A DNA stretch of 32,000 nt from Oscillospiraceae bacterium (GTDB lineage: Bacteria > Bacillota > Clostridia > Oscillospirales > Ruminococcaceae): assembly GCA_016291435.1 (NCBI GenBank), contig JAEEXH010000007.1, positions 25,207 to 57,206 of the forward strand, given 5' to 3'. The notes beneath the pieces were generated by a model, which was not told the origin of the DNA, searched no databases, and was given only the letters and a program-made list of their open reading frames with translations. How positions within the stretch are numbered: position 1 is the stretch's first letter; every line of letters begins with the position of its first letter. Shown one piece after another: positions 2,509-31,500 of the stretch. The translations under genes and the position numbers were made by a program.

Positions 2509-4803
2509 ATGAAGCGTAAGACGATCACCTCGATCGCATTTTCAGTTTTTGTCGCTTTTGCAATCATCACGGCATATATCATGGTGTATGCCTACCATCA
2601 CCGCGAGGTATCCGAGCTGGTATATCTCATCTTCAATTCCTATGCGATCGCGGCTCTGATCCTGGGGCTTGTCTTTGTGCTACACTGGCAGTATTCCAGC
2701 GCAAAGCGCAGAGAACAGGCGCAGCAGTCTCTCCGGCAGCTTGTCGAGAGCCTTGCCTCTCCCGCGATGCTCTGGAACGATGCACTCGACACAGTCATCA
2801 TGAATGACACGCTGCGGGAGCTCTCTGAGCTGACAAAATCCGGCGAGGGAGTTGATGCGAAATATATTGTGCCGTGGCTCTTCGGGCAGAAGCTCCTGAC
2901 GGAAACGCAGATCCGGGAGATCGTCCGTGCGAGAGACCGGGAGTATTCCTTCACAACGAAGAACGGCACAAAGCACGATATGATCTGGAACACCGCCGGC
3001 ATCGAGCAGGATGAGAACGGCGTCACATGGTATCTTTCCATCGGTCTGGATCTTGCGGATATCCGCCGGATGCAGTCGGAGCTGACGGATTATTCCCGCC
3101 GCCTTGCTGCCTCTGAGGGCAGACATATGCTGACGATGGAGCTCACGGATATCGGCATTCTGCTGATCGAGCAGGGCAACCCAAATATGTTCCCCTCTGA
3201 GAAGCTCCGCACGATGCTCGGGCTCAAGGGCGAGACCATTACGCTTCAGGATGTGCGTGCGAAAATCTATCCGCTTGACCTCACGATCTTTGACAACCAT
3301 GTGCAGACCATGCGCCTCCGTATGCGCGACTATCTCACGCAGACCGGCAGGCTTGAGCTGCGCATCGGCTCGGCAGACGGGCAGTACCGCTGGTATTCCT
3401 ACCGCTTCAAGGCGACACAGCGCACCGACACCGGCCGTCTGGTCGTCGGCGGCTCCCTGATCGACATTACACCTGAGAAGGAGAAGGATCAGCGCATCGA
3501 GCGGCTGGCATATGAGGATGAGGTCACGGGCATCCCGAACCGCAACGGACTGATGAAGATGGGACGCGACCTCTATCAATGTACCGTGGAGCTCGGCGCA
3601 GTCTACTGGGTCATTGCGCTGGATATCGACCGCTTCCACCTGATCAACGACACCTGCGGCTATGAAAACGGCAATCAGCTCCTGCGCGGCTTTGCGGAGA
3701 CGCTGAAAAAGCAGCTCAATCTCGGCGGCTTCGGTGCACGCATTTCGGGCGACAATTTTGCGCTGATCCTCCGTGATTCCGGCGATGAGGATCTCCCCGC
3801 AAAGGTCGTCGGGCGCATTCAGCGCAGCCTTGCGACGCTTGCCGTCGGTCCCTTTGCGAACCGTGCGCTGACCTGCTCTGCGGGCTATGCGCGGATGCCT
3901 GCGGACGGCGAGAGCTTTGAGCAGGTGCTGGAGCGTGCGGAGTTTGCACTCTCCTCCGGCAAGGCGATCCTCGGCAGCATCGACCGCTATACATCGGCTA
4001 TGCATGACAGCATCGTCACGGAGAGCGTGCTGGAGAAGGAGCTCACCGACGCTGTGATGAACCGGCAGCTTGAGGTGTATTATCAGCCGAAGGTTTCGCT
4101 CGATACAGGCAGAGTGGTCGGCATGGAAGCGCTGATCCGCTGGCATCATCCGGACGGGCGCCTGATTCCGCCGAGTGTGTTCATCCCGATTGCGGAACGG
4201 TCGGCGCTCATCACGCAGATCACACGCTTTGCGCTCTATGAAGCCTGCCGCCAGACACGGCTCTGGCAGAAGCTCGGGCTCCCGGAGATTGTCATTTCCG
4301 TCAATATGAGCAGCACCGATTTCTATCAGGAAAATGTCTGCGCGATGGTGCAGAGGGCGCTCGAAAAGAACGATTTGCAGCCGCAGTATCTTGAAATTGA
4401 GCTGACGGAGTCGCTGGCGCTCAAGGATATTGACACAACGATCACGCGCATGAAGGAGCTCCGCGAAGCTGGCATCGGCATCGCGATGGACGATTTCGGC
4501 ACCGGCTATTCCTCGCTGAGCTATATTCAGATGCTTCCCTTTACGATGGTCAAGCTCGACAGCTCGTTTATCTTCAATATGGATCAGGATAAGGTGATTG
4601 AGGAGATTGTCAAGTCTGTCATTCACATTGCGAATACAAAGGGCATCGGCACGATCGCAGAGGGCGTCGAGACTGAGGCGCAGGAGAAATTGCTGCGTGC
4701 GTTCGGCTGCGGACAGGTGCAGGGCTTCCATTACGGCAAACCGATGCCGGCGAAGGAAGCAGAAGCCTTTATGCGCGAGAACATGAAGCAGCACGGGGTC
4801 TGA
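2509..4803 (+). CDS. Membrane-anchored PAS / degenerate-GGDEF / EAL protein (probable c-di-GMP phosphodiesterase)
   Basis: 764 aa with two N-terminal TM helices and PAS-like repeats. The GGDEF-domain core reads GIPNRNG...DIDRFHLINDTCGY...RISGDNFALIL, so the signature is SGDNF rather than GG(D/E)EF. The EAL-domain motif set is complete: EALIRW, SVNMS, EIELTES, DDFGTGYSSL, KLD, EGVE and QGFHYGKP. Confidence 0.85.
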   Translation: MKRKTITSIAFSVFVAFAIITAYIMVYAYHHREVSELVYLIFNSYAIAALILGLVFVLHWQYSSAKRREQAQQSLRQLVESLASPAMLWNDALDTVIMNDTLRELSELTKSGEGVDAKYIVPWLFGQKLLTETQIREIVRARDREYSFTTKNGTKHDMIWNTAGIEQDENGVTWYLSIGLDLADIRRMQSELTDYSRRLAASEGRHMLTMELTDIGILLIEQGNPNMFPSEKLRTMLGLKGETITLQDVRAKIYPLDLTIFDNHVQTMRLRMRDYLTQTGRLELRIGSADGQYRWYSYRFKATQRTDTGRLVVGGSLIDITPEKEKDQRIERLAYEDEVTGIPNRNGLMKMGRDLYQCTVELGAVYWVIALDIDRFHLINDTCGYENGNQLLRGFAETLKKQLNLGGFGARISGDNFALILRDSGDEDLPAKVVGRIQRSLATLAVGPFANRALTCSAGYARMPADGESFEQVLERAEFALSSGKAILGSIDRYTSAMHDSIVTESVLEKELTDAVMNRQLEVYYQPKVSLDTGRVVGMEALIRWHHPDGRLIPPSVFIPIAERSALITQITRFALYEACRQTRLWQKLGLPEIVISVNMSSTDFYQENVCAMVQRALEKNDLQPQYLEIELTESLALKDIDTTITRMKELREAGIGIAMDDFGTGYSSLSYIQMLPFTMVKLDSSFIFNMDQDKVIEEIVKSVIHIANTKGIGTIAEGVETEAQEKLLRAFGCGQVQGFHYGKPMPAKEAEAFMRENMKQHGV

Positions 4804-12958: not shown

Positions 12959-13290
12959 GAAATCATTTGCCTTGCAAAAGATGAAGCCTGCAAGCAGATG
13001 AAATTCGCAGCGGAGCTGCGAAAGAAATAAATCCGCTCCACTCGCCTGCAGGCGATTTCATCCCGAAGGGATTTCACTGCGCGAAGGCAATATCTCCCGC
13101 GGAACGCGGATTGAAATGGAACGCAGGCTGAAAATGAAATCATTTGCTGCGCAAAAGATGAAACCTGCAAGCAGATGAAATTCGCAGCAGAGCTGCGAAA
13201 GCAATAAATCCGCTCCATTCGCCCGCAGGCGATTTCATCCCGAAGGGATTTCGCTGCGCGAAGCGCAATTTCTCCCGCGGAACGCGGATT
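12959..13290. repeat. Tandem direct repeat, two units of about 154 bp with a 177-bp period
   Basis: Unit 1 (12959-13112) and unit 2 (13136-13290) align with about 11 differences, including a 1-nt indel. Each unit contains four short palindromic hairpins: TTCGCAGC-gga-GCTGCGAA, TCGCCTGCAGGCGA, ATCCC-gaa-GGGAT and CCGCG-gaa-CGCGG. Confidence 0.9.
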
Positions 13291-13295
13291 TAATT

Positions 13296-13324
13296 GAAGC
13301 CCCATGCCTGGGGCATGGGGCTTC
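13296..13324 (-). terminator. Hairpin immediately 3' of tRNA-Arg
   Basis: GAAGCCCCATGCC-tgg-GGCATGGGGCTTC, a perfect 13-bp stem. It lies 4 nt after the tRNA 3' end and is followed on the minus strand by AATTAAAT. Confidence 0.7.
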
Positions 13325-13328
13325 AAAG

Positions 13329-13402
13329 TACGCCTGATGCGATTCGAACGCACGACCTTCAGAGTCGGAGTCTGACACTCTATCCAGCTGAGCTACAGGC
13401 GC
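13329..13402 (-). tRNA. tRNA-Arg (anticodon CCG)
   Basis: The reverse complement folds by hand into a 74-nt cloverleaf. The arms are acceptor GCGCCTG/CAGGCGT, D arm GCTC-AGCTGGATA-GAGT, anticodon arm TCAGA-CTCCGAC-TCTGA (anticodon CCG), variable loop AGGTC and T arm GTGCG-TTCGAAT-CGCAT. The discriminator is A and no CCA is encoded. Confidence 0.9.
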
Positions 13403-25202: not shown

Positions 25203-25247
25203 GAGGGTGTCAGCAAACCCGTGAAATACCGAAAGGAGATGCTTTTT

Positions 25248-27209
25248 ATGAAACTGTTCAAGCAGATGGTCTCCGGCGTGCTCGCCCTCTCGATGGCGTT
25301 CGGCGCAGCGACCTTCACCACAGCAGATGATTCCGTGCAGGCAGCCTCCGATGCCGTCGCGCTCGTGGAGCAGATGGGCATGGGCTGGAACCTCGGCAAC
25401 ACCTTCGACAGCGCACCTGTCAAGTCCTGGGTCTCGAATGATCCCTATGTGGATACCGAGGTCGGCTGGGGCAACCCCACCACCACCAAGGCGATGATCG
25501 CCGCGATCAAGAACGCCGGCTTCAACACCGTCCGTATCCCGGTCACCTGGTTCGAGAACATGGACAGCTCCGGCAAGGTCGATGAGGACTATCTCGCACG
25601 CATCAAGGCGGTCGTGGATTACTGCATCGACCAGGGCATGTACGCGATCATCAATGTGCACCATGACGGCGCTTCCGCCGCAAACGGCAACAGCGCGACC
25701 GCCGGCGCAACGAATGCGACCATCAACGGCGCATGGCTCTGGCAGGGCACTTCCCAGATGAGCAAGTTCGAGAGCCTCTGGGCACAGATCGCAAACTACT
25801 TCAAGGCGTATGACAACCATCTCGCATTCGCGGGCTGGAACGAGATCAGCCTCTCCTATGCAAATGAGCTGACCTTCGCCAACACCTTCGTCAAGGCAGT
25901 CCGTGCGACCGGCGGCAACAACGCAAACCGCCTGCTCATCATCCCGGCAAACAACACGAACCTCGACGCAGCACTGAACAGCGGCTTCCAGATGCCGACA
26001 GACAGCGCAAATATGACCGCAGTCGAGATCCACTACTATGCACCGCCCGCATTCTCCATCGCAGAGGCGAATGTCACATGGTGCACCCCTGCAACCACTT
26101 GGGGCACTGCCGCTGACGTGCAGGAGATGAAGAACGACATCAACACGCTCTATCAGAAGTTCTCTGCAAACGGCACGCCGGTCATCATCGGTGAGTGCGG
26201 CGTTCTGACGAATGAGGGCAAGAACAAGGAAGACATCCGCGACTGGCTCCAGACGCTCTTCTCCGCATCGCTCGGCTACGACGGCATCTGCCCGGTGCTC
26301 TGGGACAGCTCCGACTGCGGCGACATGCAGTATTTCAGCCGCAAGAATATGAAGTGGAACGACAGCGCGGTCGAGACCATGTTCAAGAACATGACCGGCA
26401 CCGCAACCAACACCACCACGACCTACACCTTCGATGCTTCCAAGTATCAGGCGGAGGACGGCTCCTTTGAGTATCTCTTCGATCTCAAGCCCTTCAAGGG
26501 TCTTGCGCAGATCACCGGCTTCAATATCAAGGGTCACGGCACCTCTACCGGCGCGGATTCCTGCTTCGGCGTCGCCGTGCAGTTCAACGGCTACTACACC
26601 GAGGAGGAGACCGGCAAGGAAGAGGATTATCACTGGCTCGTCAAGCAGATCAGCTACGGCTACAACGCAGAGAGCTATGCCTTCATGCTCGACACCGAGG
26701 TCATGAGCGACGGCGAAAATGACATCGGCACCGACGGCAGCGGCTATCACCTCTCCTATGATTACCTCAAGCTCAACAGCTGGTGGGATAACAACTGCTC
26801 CGACTACGCGATCGACTCTGTCACCCTGATGTTCGATCAGCCGGTCGTGCTCGATGACCAGGGCGATATCGTCACAACACCTTCCGAGACCACCACTACT
26901 ACAACTACGACCACGACCACCACGACCACCACGACCACCACTACGACCACAACCACTACCACCACTTCGACAGAGCCGCAGAAGGTGATCGTCTGGGGTG
27001 ATGCAGACTGCAGCGGTACCTTCGAGATGAGCGATCTCGTGCTGCTCGCAAAGGCTTCTGCCGGCGTGGAAGGCGCGACGCTCTCCGTGGACGGCGTCTC
27101 GAACTGCAACTTGAATGCCAACAGCGGCATCGACAACGGCGATATGACCATTGCACTGAAGCTGATGGCAGGCTTCTATTCCGAGAGCGATATGCCGATC
27201 ACAGGCTGA
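25248..27209 (+). CDS. Secreted GH5 glycoside hydrolase (endoglucanase-like) with unassigned beta-rich module, poly-Thr linker and type I dockerin
   Basis: I chose the start at 25248 (MKLFKQMVSGVLALSMAFG, a signal peptide), which has an AAAGGAG RBS. GH5 motifs are GWNLGNTFD, VRIPVTW, NVHHDG, AGWNE (acid/base) and IGECG (nucleophile). A run of 26 consecutive Thr codons spans 26889-26966. The dockerin Ca-binding loops are GDADCSGTFEMSD and NANSGIDNGD. Confidence 0.85.
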   Translation: MKLFKQMVSGVLALSMAFGAATFTTADDSVQAASDAVALVEQMGMGWNLGNTFDSAPVKSWVSNDPYVDTEVGWGNPTTTKAMIAAIKNAGFNTVRIPVTWFENMDSSGKVDEDYLARIKAVVDYCIDQGMYAIINVHHDGASAANGNSATAGATNATINGAWLWQGTSQMSKFESLWAQIANYFKAYDNHLAFAGWNEISLSYANELTFANTFVKAVRATGGNNANRLLIIPANNTNLDAALNSGFQMPTDSANMTAVEIHYYAPPAFSIAEANVTWCTPATTWGTAADVQEMKNDINTLYQKFSANGTPVIIGECGVLTNEGKNKEDIRDWLQTLFSASLGYDGICPVLWDSSDCGDMQYFSRKNMKWNDSAVETMFKNMTGTATNTTTTYTFDASKYQAEDGSFEYLFDLKPFKGLAQITGFNIKGHGTSTGADSCFGVAVQFNGYYTEEETGKEEDYHWLVKQISYGYNAESYAFMLDTEVMSDGENDIGTDGSGYHLSYDYLKLNSWWDNNCSDYAIDSVTLMFDQPVVLDDQGDIVTTPSETTTTTTTTTTTTTTTTTTTTTTTTTTSTEPQKVIVWGDADCSGTFEMSDLVLLAKASAGVEGATLSVDGVSNCNLNANSGIDNGDMTIALKLMAGFYSESDMPITG

Positions 27210-27281: not shown

Positions 27282-27310
27282 TTGCAATCCTGTGCGAAAA
27301 GTAGTATAAT
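27282..27310 (+). promoter_or_regulatory. Promoter of asnB
   Basis: TTGCAA (27282-27287), a 17-nt spacer, then TATAAT (27305-27310). Confidence 0.6.
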
Positions 27311-27362
27311 AAACATGTGCCGCGTCTCAAATCCCATCCGGCACAGCACAGGAGGCAAATCT

Positions 27363-29255
27363 ATGTGTGGCATTATCGGCTTTACCAACCGCATTGACAA
27401 CGCAGACTCTGTCCTTGAGGAAATGATGGAGCGTATTCGTCACCGCGGACCGGATGCCGGCGGCAAGTATCTCAATGGGGAGATCGCACTCGGACACCGC
27501 CGGCTTTCTATCATCGACATCACGGAATCGGGCAATCAGCCCATTTTCAATGAAGACAGATCACTCGTATTGATCTTCAACGGCGAGATTTATAACTATA
27601 AGGAGCTGCGCGGGGAGCTGCGTACAAAGGGGTACCGCTTCCGCACAGAGACCGATTCGGAGGTGCTGATCCACGGCTACGCGGAATACGGCACCGGGCT
27701 TCTGAACAGGCTGCGCGGCATGTTCTCGTTCGTCATCTGGGATGTAAACCGGAAGCGCCTTTTCGGTGCACGCGATTTCTTCGGCATCAAGCCGATGTAT
27801 TATGCGGAGATGAACGGCACATTCATGTTCGGCAGCGAGATCAAGGCATTTCTCCCGCATCCGCATTTCAAAAAGGAGCTCAACACCGATGTGCTGGAGC
27901 AGTATCTCACGTTCCAGTATTCCCCGACGGAGGAGACATTCTTCAAGGGCGTGAAAAAGCTCCTGCCCGCGCATTATTTCATCTATGAGGACGGCAAGCT
28001 CACCGTTGAGCGCTACTGGGATGTGAAATTCCGGCCTGACGAGCACCCGTTGCTCGGCGACTGGGTGAAGTCCATCTCCGAGACCTTCAAGGATTCCGTC
28101 CGTGCGCACAAGATCGCAGACGTCGAGGTCGGCAGCTTCCTTTCCTCCGGCGTCGATTCGAGCTATGTCGCCGCTGCTGCGAATGTTGACAAGACCTTCA
28201 CGGTCGGCTTCGGCACCGATGAAAAATACAACGAGATCGGCTACGCAAAGCGCTTCTCCCGTGCGATCGGCAAGGAGAATTTCAGCCATGTCATCACGCA
28301 GGAGGAATACTGGGGCGCGCTCCCGATGATCCAGTATCACATGGATGAGCCGCTCGCAGACCCTTCCTGCATCGCGCTCTACTTTGTGTGCAAACTTGCA
28401 GCAGAGCAGGTCAAGGTTGTGCTCTCGGGCGAGGGCGCAGACGAAATTTTCGGCGGCTACAATGTATACAGCGAGCCGAACGCAACATGGTATGACAAGG
28501 TGCCGATGGGCGTGCGCCGTGCGGTCGGCAAGGCGGCAGGTGCGCTCGGTGCCCGCAGAGGCGTCAATTTCCTTGTGCGCAAGGGCAAGACGCTTGAGGA
28601 GTGGTTCATCGGCAATGCGTATATGTTCACGCCGGAGGAACGCAAGGCACTCCTGAAAATCACAACAAACGCGCCCGACCCCACCGCTGTCACGAAGCCG
28701 TTTTATGATCAGGTGCAGGGCTGCGACCCTGTGACGAAAATGCAGTATCTCGATCTGCATCTCTGGATGGCGGGCGATATTCTGCTGAAAGCGGATAAGA
28801 TGAGCATGGCGAATTCGCTTGAGCTGCGCGTGCCCTTCCTCGATAAGGAGGTCATGGCGCTGGCGGAGCAGATCCCCGACCGCTTCCGCGTGACGCGGGT
28901 CACGAAGACGGACGATGACACGCCCTATGTGACGAAATATGCGATGCGCCTTGCGGCAAAGCGCGACACACCGAAGGACACCGCGGAGACCTCGGCAAAG
29001 AAGAAGCTCGGCTTCCCCGTGCCGATCCGCGTCTGGCTGAAACAGGATGACTGCTATGCGACCGTCAAGGCTGCCTTCACCGGGGAGACTGCGGAGCAGT
29101 TCTTCCATACGGAATCGCTGGTGAAACTGCTTGACGATCACAAAAACGGCAAGGCGGACAACTCCCGCAAGATCTGGACGGTCTATATGTTCCTTGTGTG
29201 GTATAAGGTGTATTTTGAGGAAGATGCAGCGTGCGGGGTGCGGAATACCGTTTGA
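27363..29255 (+). CDS. asnB: Asparagine synthase (glutamine-hydrolysing)
   Basis: I chose the start at 27363 (MCGIIGF, with the Cys2 nucleophile), which has an AGGAGG RBS. It has the GATase-2 block HRGPDAGG...LGHRRLSIID and the PP-loop SFLSSGVDSS. Confidence 0.9.
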   Translation: MCGIIGFTNRIDNADSVLEEMMERIRHRGPDAGGKYLNGEIALGHRRLSIIDITESGNQPIFNEDRSLVLIFNGEIYNYKELRGELRTKGYRFRTETDSEVLIHGYAEYGTGLLNRLRGMFSFVIWDVNRKRLFGARDFFGIKPMYYAEMNGTFMFGSEIKAFLPHPHFKKELNTDVLEQYLTFQYSPTEETFFKGVKKLLPAHYFIYEDGKLTVERYWDVKFRPDEHPLLGDWVKSISETFKDSVRAHKIADVEVGSFLSSGVDSSYVAAAANVDKTFTVGFGTDEKYNEIGYAKRFSRAIGKENFSHVITQEEYWGALPMIQYHMDEPLADPSCIALYFVCKLAAEQVKVVLSGEGADEIFGGYNVYSEPNATWYDKVPMGVRRAVGKAAGALGARRGVNFLVRKGKTLEEWFIGNAYMFTPEERKALLKITTNAPDPTAVTKPFYDQVQGCDPVTKMQYLDLHLWMAGDILLKADKMSMANSLELRVPFLDKEVMALAEQIPDRFRVTRVTKTDDDTPYVTKYAMRLAAKRDTPKDTAETSAKKKLGFPVPIRVWLKQDDCYATVKAAFTGETAEQFFHTESLVKLLDDHKNGKADNSRKIWTVYMFLVWYKVYFEEDAACGVRNTV

Positions 29256-29305
29256 TGCGGTATCCGCAGCAGAGCACACAGGGTACCGCCGAAAGGAGGA
29301 TTCCA

Positions 29306-30340
29306 ATGGATGTGTTTATCAGCTACCGGCGCGATGTCGGCTCCCTGCTGGCACATCAGATTCGGGAAATGCTCACGGCTGACGGCATCACTGTCTTCTG
29401 GGATAAGGCGGAGCTGAGCCGTCACACCGGCTTCTTCGATGACGAAATTGTGCAGGCACTCGACAGCGCAGCGTATGTTCTGCTGATTCTGACAGCAGGC
29501 AGCTTTGATGATCTGCGGTCGCATCCGGTGTTTCTGAATGAGATCAATCATGCAATCGCAGCGCGGAAACGCATCATTCCGATCTGCGGAGCGCGGTTTC
29601 AGTTCCCGGAAAACCTTGCGGACTGCGGGGAAGATCTTGTGCAGCTCCCGCGATTGCAGTCGCTCTTTGTGCAGCAGTTCGACGATGCCTTTCATTTTGC
29701 CCTGCTCGGCATGATGACAGAGCTGCCGCGTGCGGCGGAGCTCTACCGGAAGCATACGGTGCAGACGGTTCTTATGTCAAAAAGCGAGGCGGAGCGGGCG
29801 TTTCCGCTGGAGGATCGGCTGTGCGGCGATGTGATCGCCGTGGATTCCGTGTCCTTTTCCGGGCAGACCCTGCTCAGCGTGCAGCGGAGAATGACGGAGC
29901 AGCTGATCCGGAACGGCTGCAACTTCCGCTTTGTGATCTGCGATCCGGATTGCCCGGCAGCAGAGGAAGCATTCCGCTACCGGCTGGAGGGCGGCACGGA
30001 GCGGCAGCGGAGAAGGATGCTGCGCTGCTCCTACGAGGATATGCTGGAGTGGGCAGAATCTGCTCCTGCACAGTTCAAAGGCAGAGTGTTCCGCCTTTCT
30101 ATGCTGTGCTCAATTCTGATTGTGCGGCACAAGGATCCTGCGAAAGATACGATCCGCGTGGTGTATTACGGCTACGGCGAAACTGAGTACGGGCTGCGGC
30201 GTGTGAATCTCACCCGGGCGGATGCTGCCAATTTTGCTTATTATGAGCAGCAGTTTGCGTGGATCTGGGCGCATGCCGTTCCGCCGGAGGACACTGAGAC
30301 CGAATCAAGCTCCCGGCAAACAGACTCAATTCGGAGGTAA
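29306..30340 (+). CDS. TIR-domain protein with unassigned roughly 200-aa C-terminal domain
   Basis: I chose the start at 29306 (MDVFISYRRD), which has an AAAGGAGG RBS 6 nt upstream. The TIR pattern is DVFISYRR..G...A..I...L...GI.VFWD...L..G..F..EI..AL..(S/A).YVLLILT, then VFLNEINHAI (candidate catalytic Glu at about residue 79) and IIPI. The C-terminal half (IAVDSVSFSGQTLL, FRFVICDPDCPAAEEAF, ILIVRHKD, IRVVYYGYG, FAWIWAHA) matches no family I can assign with confidence. Confidence 0.75.
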   Translation: MDVFISYRRDVGSLLAHQIREMLTADGITVFWDKAELSRHTGFFDDEIVQALDSAAYVLLILTAGSFDDLRSHPVFLNEINHAIAARKRIIPICGARFQFPENLADCGEDLVQLPRLQSLFVQQFDDAFHFALLGMMTELPRAAELYRKHTVQTVLMSKSEAERAFPLEDRLCGDVIAVDSVSFSGQTLLSVQRRMTEQLIRNGCNFRFVICDPDCPAAEEAFRYRLEGGTERQRRRMLRCSYEDMLEWAESAPAQFKGRVFRLSMLCSILIVRHKDPAKDTIRVVYYGYGETEYGLRRVNLTRADAANFAYYEQQFAWIWAHAVPPEDTETESSSRQTDSIRR

Positions 30341-30343
30341 AAT

Positions 30344-31426
30344 ATGAGCGAACCGAACTATTCCCACCTGATCGACCTGAACGACTACCCCGTGGAGTGG
30401 TGGAACAAGGTCATCAATCTCGGTGCAACGATCTATCATCACCCGCAGCGCTATGTGCAGGCGTGCGCCGGAAAGATCATGGCGACGCTCTTCTATGAGC
30501 CCTCGACCCGCACGCAGATGAGCTTTCAGTCTGCGATGATCCGGCTCGGCGGCAGCATCATCGGCTTTGATAACCCGATGAGCTCCTCTGTCTCAAAGGG
30601 CGAGAATCTCAAGGACACGACAAAGGTCGTCAGCTCCTATTCGGATATTCTGATCATCCGGCACCCGCTGGCGGGCAGCGCGAAGGCGGCGGCAATGACC
30701 GCAGACTGCTGCGTTGTCAATGCGGGCGACGGCGGGCATCTCCACCCGACACAGACGCTCACCGATCTGCTGACGCTGAAAATGGAGAAGGGACGCCTTG
30801 AACATCTCACCGTGGGTCTCTGCGGCGACCTGCTCTACGGCAGAACCGTGCATTCGCTCTGCAAGGCACTCTCCTGCTATGCGGGCAACAAATTTGTGCT
30901 GATCTCGACGCCTGAGCTGCGTGCGCCGGAGTATATCCGCAAGCTGCTGCGCGATTCGGGCTGTGAATACCGCGAGGAGACCTCGCTCGATGCGGCAATC
31001 GGCGAGCTCGATGTGCTCTATATGACGCGCATTCAGCGGGAGCGCTTTGCATCGCAGGCGGATTATCTCGCGCAGAAGGATATTTACTGTCTCACGCCGG
31101 AGAAGATGGCGCATGCAAAGCCCGATCTCGCGGTGCTGCATCCGCTGCCGCGTGTCGATGAAATCGCGGTGCCGGTCGATGAAGACCCCCGTGCACTCTA
31201 TTTCAAGCAGGCGCAGTACGGCATGTATGTCCGCATGGCGCTGATCCTGAAGCTGCTCGAAAGCGAGAATCATCTGCCTGTGCTGCACGGCGAGGCGAAT
31301 GCCGAGCGGCAGTGCGTCAACCCGAAGTGTATTCTGGCGCAGGAGCACTATCTCCCGCCGCGTTTTGTGCAGGAGGGCGGTCACACGCTCTGTGAGTATT
31401 GCGAGGAGCGGGCGCTGAAGAAATGA
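30344..31426 (+). CDS. pyrB: Aspartate carbamoyltransferase catalytic chain fused to a PyrI-type zinc domain
   Basis: 360 aa. The ATG is 3 nt after the TIR stop, and its GGAGG RBS lies inside the end of the TIR gene. ATCase motifs are LFYEPSTRTQMSF, HPTQ and HPLPRVDEI. The extra C-terminal roughly 45 aa read CVNPKCI-x20-CEYCEE, the same Cys pattern as the PyrI zinc domain. Confidence 0.85.
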   Translation: MSEPNYSHLIDLNDYPVEWWNKVINLGATIYHHPQRYVQACAGKIMATLFYEPSTRTQMSFQSAMIRLGGSIIGFDNPMSSSVSKGENLKDTTKVVSSYSDILIIRHPLAGSAKAAAMTADCCVVNAGDGGHLHPTQTLTDLLTLKMEKGRLEHLTVGLCGDLLYGRTVHSLCKALSCYAGNKFVLISTPELRAPEYIRKLLRDSGCEYREETSLDAAIGELDVLYMTRIQRERFASQADYLAQKDIYCLTPEKMAHAKPDLAVLHPLPRVDEIAVPVDEDPRALYFKQAQYGMYVRMALILKLLESENHLPVLHGEANAERQCVNPKCILAQEHYLPPRFVQEGGHTLCEYCEERALKK

Positions 31427-31462
31427 ATGCGGAATTACGCGCGTTTTCAGATATGTAAAAGC

Positions 31463-31500
31463 AGCAGCACTGTCATTCCCGGCAGTGCTGCTTTTCTTTC
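31463..31500 (+). terminator. Intrinsic terminator after pyrB
   Basis: AGCAGCACTG-tcattcccgg-CAGTGCTGCT followed by TTTCTTTC. Confidence 0.8.

Follow-up and report, generated by a model that had tools for sequence, protein, structure and literature searches.

A SARM1-like TIR protein with a predicted non-catalytic PLD-fold domain, encoded at a strain-variable site between asnB and pyrB in an Oscillospiraceae bacterium

We analysed a stretch of 32,000 nucleotides from an Oscillospiraceae bacterium (contig JAEEXH010000007.1, positions 25,207 to 57,206), here called the window, and in particular a gene for a 344-aa protein lying between asnB and pyrB. The protein starts with a Toll/interleukin-1 receptor (TIR) domain of the SARM1 type and ends with a domain predicted to have a phospholipase D (PLD) fold. 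Presence of this TIR-PLD gene varies within the species, and its sequence is under purifying selection. Together these observations point to a self-contained conflict protein. In it, a PLD-fold domain without catalytic function, serving as sensor or for oligomerisation, would control a SARM1-type TIR NADase, the gene being a dispensable cassette that uses asnB-pyrB transcription. We give this reading somewhat better than an even chance.

Results

A gene present or absent at the asnB-pyrB junction

The gene and its parts are located as follows (positions are those of the window).

29306..30340, + strand: TIR-PLD gene, 344 aa, stop codon included (open reading frame (ORF) call, Pfam, homologue, dN/dS)
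29293..29299, + strand: ribosome-binding site (RBS) of the TIR-PLD gene, AAGGAGG, 6 nt 5' of the ATG (sequence)
29306..29725, + strand: SARM1-type TIR domain and subsequent helical region, residues 1-140 (TIR_2 at residues 3-96; SARM1/TIR-1 match at residues 1-130)
29540..29542, + strand: GAG codon of E79, the predicted catalytic glutamate (aligned with the Glu of SARM1 'WVHKEIV')
29768..30280, + strand: predicted non-catalytic PLD-fold (DUF5919-like) domain, residues 155-325 (AlphaFold, Foldseek, DUF5919 matches of relatives)
30281..30337, + strand: low-complexity C-terminal tail, residues 326-344, running through the pyrB RBS (no conservation beyond W321-H323)
29237..30331, + strand: strain-variable segment of 1095 bp that carries the TIR-PLD gene (alignment with contig L012)

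The gene is real and not a chance ORF, because it has a TIR_2 match, a full-length homologue at 60% identity, and a dN/dS of 0.26. The ORF is intact in 8 sequence variants, all of 344 aa, on about 20 contigs. Its product is named 'toll/interleukin-1 receptor domain-containing protein' at NCBI, from an Oscillospiraceae metagenome-assembled genome (MAG), and its GC content (0.55-0.61) is the same as that of the flanks.

On L012, a metagenome contig from the same species, asnB and pyrB are adjacent. This contig is 97.2% identical at the nucleotide level to positions 27886-29236 of the window and 97.5% identical to positions 30332-31435, has nothing matching between them, and carries 116 bp in place of 29237-30331. 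The species is thus polymorphic for carrying the gene. On the right, the variable segment has its breakpoint at the shared 'CGGAGGTAAAATATG'. A metagenome scan with PyrB gave 80 loci, none of which matches the variable segment; 14 of them hold both asnB and pyrB, and the TIR gene is found in none of the 14. A sequence-only reading of this DNA had proposed an insertion between the two housekeeping genes, with a conserved core gene as the alternative. The junction comparison upholds the insertion, and the alternative fails, the gene being missing from L012 and from the 14 related loci.

Other cargo occupies the asnB-pyrB gap of relatives: a 67-aa membrane ORF, a 272-aa membrane protein, a 193-aa protein and a 222-aa protein. 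Of the 60 nt upstream of pyrB, relatives widely share only the RBS region GCCGGAGGTA, which does not set the direction of change, gain or loss.

A single close homologue was found (P0002, 60% identity). It occupies the same asnB-pyrB position in a different species, whose AsnB and PyrB proteins are 78-81% and 85-87% identical to those of the window, and its stop codon likewise lies between the pyrB RBS and ATG. The nearest relatives of that species are without the gene. Between the window and P0002 copies, dN/dS (Nei-Gojobori) was 0.26 overall, 0.26 for the TIR part and 0.19 for the PLD part, and dS was 1.17 for the TIR-PLD gene, 0.92 for asnB and 0.77 for pyrB, all rough values as dS is near saturation. 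Taken together, the copy at the same site, the absence in relatives and the dN/dS show that the gene is under purifying selection and has probably long been resident at this site; repeated loss, or exchange by recombination via the conserved flanks, would follow from the same observations.

Several further observations concern this locus. Variable gap contents were seen in L014, L015, L022, L026, L027 and L028-L030, with several genes in L026 and L027, and L001 and L002 also have the 67-aa membrane ORF, 5' of the TIR gene. Where the variable segment begins on the left, the asnB stop codon lies within an imperfect inverted repeat at 29243-29270, GCGGAATACCG ... CGGTATCCGC, which has no T-rich tail. 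After pyrB, L012 carries an extra 221-aa ORF (2621-3286), about 690 bp that are missing from the window at ~31430-31435; in the product, a part resembling a zinc ribbon precedes what look like membrane helices. With this, the operon has two indels that differ between strains.

The N-terminal domain is a SARM1-like TIR

Pfam TIR_2 (PF13676) matched residues 3-96 with an E-value of 1.9e-10 and 41.7 bits, against a gathering cut-off of 28. Among solved structures (phmmer versus PDB), the best matches were two NAD+ hydrolases, C. elegans TIR-1 and human SARM1, with E-values from 1.5e-10 to 4e-10. E79 aligns with the Glu of SARM1 'WVHKEIV', the catalytic E642, and the FISYRR start, D33, G42 and F44 also align to SARM1 residues. 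F4, S6, Y7, D33 and E79 are invariant in the 19 family members carrying a SARM1-like TIR. The N-terminal domain is thus a SARM1-like TIR with a conserved catalytic-position Glu, and the proposal of a TIR fold with such a residue near position 79 holds. PADLOC and NCBIfam gave partial matches to TIR-SAVED, to TIR effectors of CBASS (cyclic-oligonucleotide-based antiphage signalling systems), to ThsB, to ThcB4 and to a retron TIR, all far below the family cut-offs; the PADLOC matches were confined to TIR residues 2-81.

The C-terminal domain is predicted to be a PLD fold without catalytic motif

The C-terminal domain has no Pfam match of its own. An AlphaFold model of this domain, built on a 48-sequence alignment, reached a mean pLDDT (predicted local distance difference test score) of 94.9. 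When the model was searched against PDB with Foldseek, the top 39 matches were all PLD-superfamily folds, among them TrmBL2, FAM83B DUF1669, vaccinia F13, phosphatidylserine synthase PssA, Nuc, Zucchini, NucT and PPK1. The best two, TrmBL2 (5bpd, E 6e-4, TM-score 0.55) and FAM83B (5lzk, E 1.2e-3), are both non-catalytic PLD-like proteins. In the Foldseek viral library, the top 3 matches were PLD or NucT-like proteins. A profile search of PDB sequences gave only non-significant Zucchini/MitoPLD matches (E 1.4-6).

No shared column of the 48 aligned domains holds an HxK(x)4D (HKD) motif, no His is conserved among them, and the window protein has no HKD. On the structural model, then, the C-terminal domain is a PLD fold that has lost its HKD catalytic motif; we call it the dead-PLD domain below.

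DUF5919 (PF19319) was matched by 6 of the 42 HMMER relatives, several of them over nearly the whole model, and one (P0044) scored above the gathering score (25.6 versus 23.5 bits). Three other family members have weak PLDc_2 matches. The window protein itself has no Pfam match to PF19319 even at E = 1. Its link to DUF5919, as modelled, is transitive and structural, and by score it is not a DUF5919 member. The sequence-only reading had described this region as PLD-like or DUF5919-type and had suggested a structure search: the AlphaFold model, the Foldseek matches and the DUF5919 matches of relatives agree with the description at the level of fold and superfamily, and the window protein's own DUF5919 score does not.

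The same domain is joined to different N-terminal partners

A two-sequence profile of residues 141-344 was run with HMMER, exhaustively, against 1.84 billion representatives, and found 58 clusters at 50% identity. By comparison, a word-indexed protein search with the single query returned the identical protein, one 60%-identical homologue and one TIR-only match, and with the 48-sequence profile 4 proteins. Wherever the source of a family member could be read, it was a member of the Clostridia from gut or rumen.

About 20 of the 58 clusters combine the dead-PLD domain with a SARM1-like TIR, in proteins of about 330 aa. The partner is a Cap12/PycTIR-type effector TIR in P0018 (PADLOC E 4e-29; NCBIfam Cap12 E 2e-21), and 2-4 transmembrane helices in about a dozen clusters; helix-turn-helix (HTH) or winged-HTH domains and unassigned regions make up the further partners. 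In conflict systems, a C-terminal module combined with interchanged outputs usually marks a sensor or regulatory domain. Neither P0018 nor P0046 has a cyclase nearby, and the latter is surrounded by an integrase fragment and a serine recombinase.

Full-length homologues at 27-40% identity were found in five species-level genomes (Oscillospiraceae, Ruminococcaceae, Eubacteriales and Clostridia MAGs) and on several metagenome contigs. A genome-contig profile scan with the 11 closest sequences returned 5 loci, the window's own genome not being among them. The distant homologues lie in unrelated contexts, some adjoining transposases, recombinases or a second large TIR protein. In L004 the gene has a major facilitator superfamily (MFS) transporter upstream and a phosphoesterase and IS3 downstream; in L007 it is followed by rimP-nusA-infB. 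These two loci and L011 have no cupin gene of the kind described next, yet keep the consensus residues of the PLD domain.

A cupin gene adjoins the TIR-PLD gene in a sister clade

A cupin gene of 142-169 aa stands 3' of the TIR-PLD gene in four lineages (P0005/L003/L008, P0006/L009, P0008/L006 and P0010/L005), which differ from each other by more than 50% in sequence. Gene calls, available for L006, L008 and L009, show a 4-bp overlap between the TIR-PLD stop and the cupin start. Conservation of the cupin is 55-67%, with the HxH...E metal motif retained. Neither PADLOC nor NCBIfam matches it, and no homologue of it is found in the 32-kb window. The cupin genes and their homologues lie as follows.

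L003 2599-3057: cupin gene adjoining a TIR-PLD gene
L005 3428-3874: cupin gene adjoining a TIR-PLD gene
L006 8534-8962: cupin gene adjoining a TIR-PLD gene
L008 2641-3099: cupin gene adjoining a TIR-PLD gene
L009 1185-1613: cupin gene adjoining a TIR-PLD gene
L098 5001-6363: cupin homologue beside a transmembrane plus PLD-like protein
L100 2142-3547 and L101 1833-3238: cupin homologue beside a transmembrane plus ThsA_Macro protein (Ornithinibacillus halophilus; no TIR gene on the 6.4-kb contig)

Since the sister clade couples the TIR-PLD gene to a cupin gene, the single-gene state seen in the window may not be ancestral.

The cupin has 19 homologue clusters. One neighbour is a transmembrane protein of 314 aa; the PLD-domain profile matches its N-terminal half, with 25 bits in hmmsearch and, in hhalign, a probability of 88.5% and an E-value of 2.8e-6. 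Another, in O. halophilus, is the transmembrane plus ThsA_Macro protein (45 bits versus a gathering score of 25); this is the architecture of the type II Thoeris effector. Other neighbours are a 1008-aa STAND-TPR NTPase and small proteins in Paeniglutamicibacter. Such pairs of cupin and effector may form an undescribed module. Though the loci are few, they are suggestive of a cupin that works with effectors carrying a ligand-binding domain, and these contexts lend support to the dead-PLD domain as a domain of that type.

Directly after the TIR-PLD/cupin pair, L003 (3054-8349) and L008 (3105-8391) encode a protein of 785-788 aa that carries a TIR domain at its N-terminus, and also a Sel1-repeat protein of 962 aa, so that the locus may be a larger, multi-gene conflict locus.

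Transcription and surroundings of the gene

The neighbouring genes and candidate signals are the following.

27360..29255, + strand: asnB, glutamine-hydrolysing asparagine synthase, probable start MCGIIGF (Pfam: Asn_synthase E 3.9e-80, GATase_7 E 3.6e-45)
30344..31426, + strand: pyrB, aspartate carbamoyltransferase (Pfam: OTCace_N E 1.3e-40, OTCace E 2.2e-26)
30333..30337, + strand: pyrB RBS, GGAGG, within the final TIR-PLD codons, common to relatives without the TIR gene, adjoining the right breakpoint
27282..27310, + strand: sigma-70-like promoter candidate 5' of asnB (TTGCAA, 17-nt spacer, TATAAT; 10 of 12 consensus matches, consensus only)
31463..31492, + strand: intrinsic terminator candidate 3' of pyrB (12-bp stem with 7 GC pairs, then a T-rich tail)

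The asnB stop codon is at 29253-29255 and the ATG of the TIR-PLD gene, which opens the protein with MDVFISYRRD, starts 51 nt downstream. The TAA stop is at 30338-30340 and is separated by a gap of 3 nt from the pyrB ATG at 30344. A scan of the asnB-pyrB interval detected no + strand promoter-like site and no convincing terminator, the candidate at 27282-27310 being the only + strand promoter-like site before pyrB. Lacking promoter and terminator signals of its own, the TIR-PLD gene is probably co-transcribed with the asnB-pyrB unit. An Rfam scan found no RNA element near it. What had first been read from the letters agrees with all this: the 344-aa ORF and its first residues, the 51-nt and 3-nt spacings and the pyrB RBS inside the gene are borne out by the sequence, and the lack of signals of its own by the scan. 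The expectation that none of the usual TIR partners would be nearby was also right, as Pfam detected no SIR2/SLOG ThsA, CD-NTase/Pycsar cyclase or Argonaute among the 23 larger ORFs of the window.

Residues 323-356 of PyrB match the PyrI_C zinc domain (E 5.5e-5, 23.4 bits, exactly the cut-off), and no separate pyrI gene is present between pyrB and the terminator at 31463-31492; the protein would seem to be a PyrB-PyrI(C) fusion. Elsewhere the window encodes a two-component system, parAB, guaB, VanY, SpoVAC, a GH5 cellulase, MetRS, PFK and a GGDEF-EAL protein, all core chromosome. The GH5 cellulase (25221-27209, + strand) has a Thr linker run of about 27 residues and a C-terminal module that is dockerin-like, by eye only, which fits a fibre-degrading rumen or gut Oscillospiraceae host. 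A Gut-1 RNA (Rfam RF01706) at 13227-13402 on the - strand, with 55.1 bits versus a gathering score of 50, adjoins a tRNA gene.

Discussion

From sequence comparison we infer NADase activity, a sensor role for the PLD-fold domain and a defence phenotype. The TIR domain would be the output, cleaving NAD+ by means of E79. The dead-PLD domain would be the regulatory part, binding a trigger, either a phosphate-bearing small molecule or a nucleic acid, and/or driving self-association. TIR enzymes need self-association for activity. The sensor assignment is made because one C-terminal module pairs with swapped N-terminal outputs across the family. The whole would be an accessory cassette accommodated in the asnB-pyrB gap of the core chromosome, with the pyrB RBS left intact.

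A number of results weigh against a self-contained conflict protein. No defence-system model of PADLOC or NCBIfam covers the whole protein, the matches to its TIR part being partial only. The full-length AlphaFold model, which came from a 2-sequence alignment, has a pLDDT of 38 and does not show how the two domains are arranged. Nor is the window a defence island; it is a core region. Searches of phage records, plasmid records and viral contigs gave no homologue, so that nothing ties the gene to mobile elements. Finally, polar residues of the PLD domain that are conserved in the family (T, D/E and R at positions 262, 286 and 297, in 67-85% of members) are replaced in the window protein and in P0002 (T262F, D/E286V or G, R297L). 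Given these three replacements and the absence of the cupin partner, the sensing function may have been altered or lost in the window/P0002 clade.

A broader proposal can be built on the same domain, which we put forward tentatively and regard as doubtful. The dead-PLD (DUF5919-like) domain would be an unrecognised ligand sensor of immunity, comparable to SAVED, CARF, SLOG or the ThsA Macro domain, that drives swappable outputs: SARM1-type TIR, Cap12-type TIR, membrane-spanning helices or HTH. The full system would include the metal-binding cupin, to make, modify or destroy the ligand; it is included because the cupin is coupled to TIR-PLD, transmembrane-PLD-like and transmembrane-ThsA_Macro genes. 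On this proposal, the window gene would be a derivative rewired to do without the cupin, its product having an altered pocket.

Could the protein instead produce a signal, as ThsB does? When infection is sensed, its TIR domain would make an ADP-ribose-derived messenger, and not deplete NAD+; the messenger would be read by an effector encoded elsewhere in the genome, and in the sister clade the partner could be the cupin. Thoeris TIRs are indeed among the weak best NCBIfam/PADLOC matches (ThcB4 E 3e-7, ThsB1 E 7e-4), the conserved cupin gene overlaps the TIR-PLD stop codon, and a cupin homologue adjoins a protein built like the type II Thoeris effector. However, neither an effector gene nor a cupin is in the 32-kb window, the Thoeris scores are far below cut-offs (29.6 versus 220 bits), and the TIR domain is nearest to the NAD-depleting SARM1 type. 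Moreover, the PLD domain is also fused to a Cap12/PycTIR effector TIR and to transmembrane helices, which suggests that the N-terminal part is an output and not the source of a signal. We consider a signal producer unlikely.

More improbable still is a metabolic regulator of asnB-pyrB, whose PLD domain would sense a metabolite such as a nucleotide or an intermediate of the aspartate pathway, and whose TIR domain would tune NAD+ or nucleotide pools with asparagine and pyrimidine synthesis. Probable co-transcription with two aspartate-consuming enzymes and the intact pyrB RBS would suit such a role, as would a placement kept in a second species at 60% identity, a dS (1.17) similar to that of the flanks (0.92 and 0.77) and nearest structures that are ligand-regulated or chromatin proteins of the TrmB family. 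Yet the gene is missing from the same-species contig and from 14 of 14 other asnB-pyrB loci, the surroundings of its distant homologues are unrelated (cupin, rimP-nusA, MFS transporter, IS3), and the asnB-pyrB gap of other relatives holds unrelated cargo.

Equally improbable in our view is a decaying or orphaned remnant of a two-gene cupin and TIR-PLD system, deprived of its partner and of key pocket residues and no longer serving its original function. The window/P0002 clade does lack the cupin and carries F262, V/G286 and L297, the gene is frequently lost, and its C-terminal tail is unconserved and runs through the pyrB RBS. Against decay, a dN/dS of 0.19-0.26 in both domains at a dS of about 1.2 indicates long-term purifying selection since the split, ORFs are intact (8 variants, all 344 aa, about 20 contigs), and the catalytic-position Glu and most other conserved residues are retained. 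Nor is the cupin obligatory, since L004, L007 and L011 keep the consensus residues without it. An origin from a phage or plasmid we reject, the phage, plasmid and viral-contig collections having given no match.

TIR NADases have a central part in immunity, in bacteria as in plants and animals, and a specific sensor controls each of those known. Effectors made of a TIR and a sensor are already known as a kind; a PLD-fold pseudo-enzyme as the partner was not found described. A literature search gave no paper on DUF5919, on Thoeris with a cupin, or on a TIR/PLD-like fusion, which is not proof of being unpublished, and the PLD-fold partner, the small Clostridia family and the cupin link are in none of PADLOC, NCBIfam or the searchable papers. 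If the domain is a sensor, DUF5919-type domains would acquire a role, and the repertoire of sensor-effector proteins an added module. The gene would also be an accessory immune-like gene inside a housekeeping operon, off the defence islands, where island-based scans would miss it. As the family is rare (58 clusters), the practical reach is narrow unless the cupin/PLD link generalises.

How does the self-contained conflict protein compare with known systems? With Thoeris it shares a bacterial TIR protein and weak profile similarity to ThsB and ThcB4. It differs by the extra PLD-fold domain, by the lack of a SIR2, SLOG or Macro domain among the window ORFs, and by a ThcB4 score of 29.6 bits against a cut-off of 220. 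CBASS Cap12, Pycsar PycTIR and TIR-SAVED likewise fuse a TIR output to a separate regulatory domain, and P0018 joins a TIR of the Cap12/PycTIR type to the dead-PLD domain. In the window protein, however, the partner domain has a predicted PLD fold and is not SAVED or cyclic nucleotide (cNMP)-binding, and no CD-NTase or cyclase stands beside the window gene, P0018 or P0046.

SARM1/TIR-1 is the best solved-structure match, with the FISYRR start, D33, G42, F44 and the catalytic-position E79 kept. Unlike it, the window protein is bacterial, has 344 aa and no ARM or SAM domains, and places its regulatory domain, of PLD fold, at the C-terminus. DUF5919 presumably occurs typically as a PLD-clan domain at the C-terminus of XRE-type HTH regulators, in line with the sequence-only reading. 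The transmembrane-fused relatives match PF19319 nearly end to end, and the order of strands and helices and the DP, R.T, KVD.Y and F..QFE.IW motifs are common to both. The differences are that the N-terminal partner in the window is a TIR and not an HTH, HTH or winged-HTH being found only in other family members, and that the family comes from Clostridia MAGs. The TrmB/TrmBL2 C-terminal domain and the FAM83 DUF1669 domain differ from the window domain in sequence (7-12% identity) and in their partners, a winged HTH in TrmB and none in FAM83; like it, they have a PLD fold without HKD chemistry, and they use that fold for regulation, oligomerisation or partner binding.

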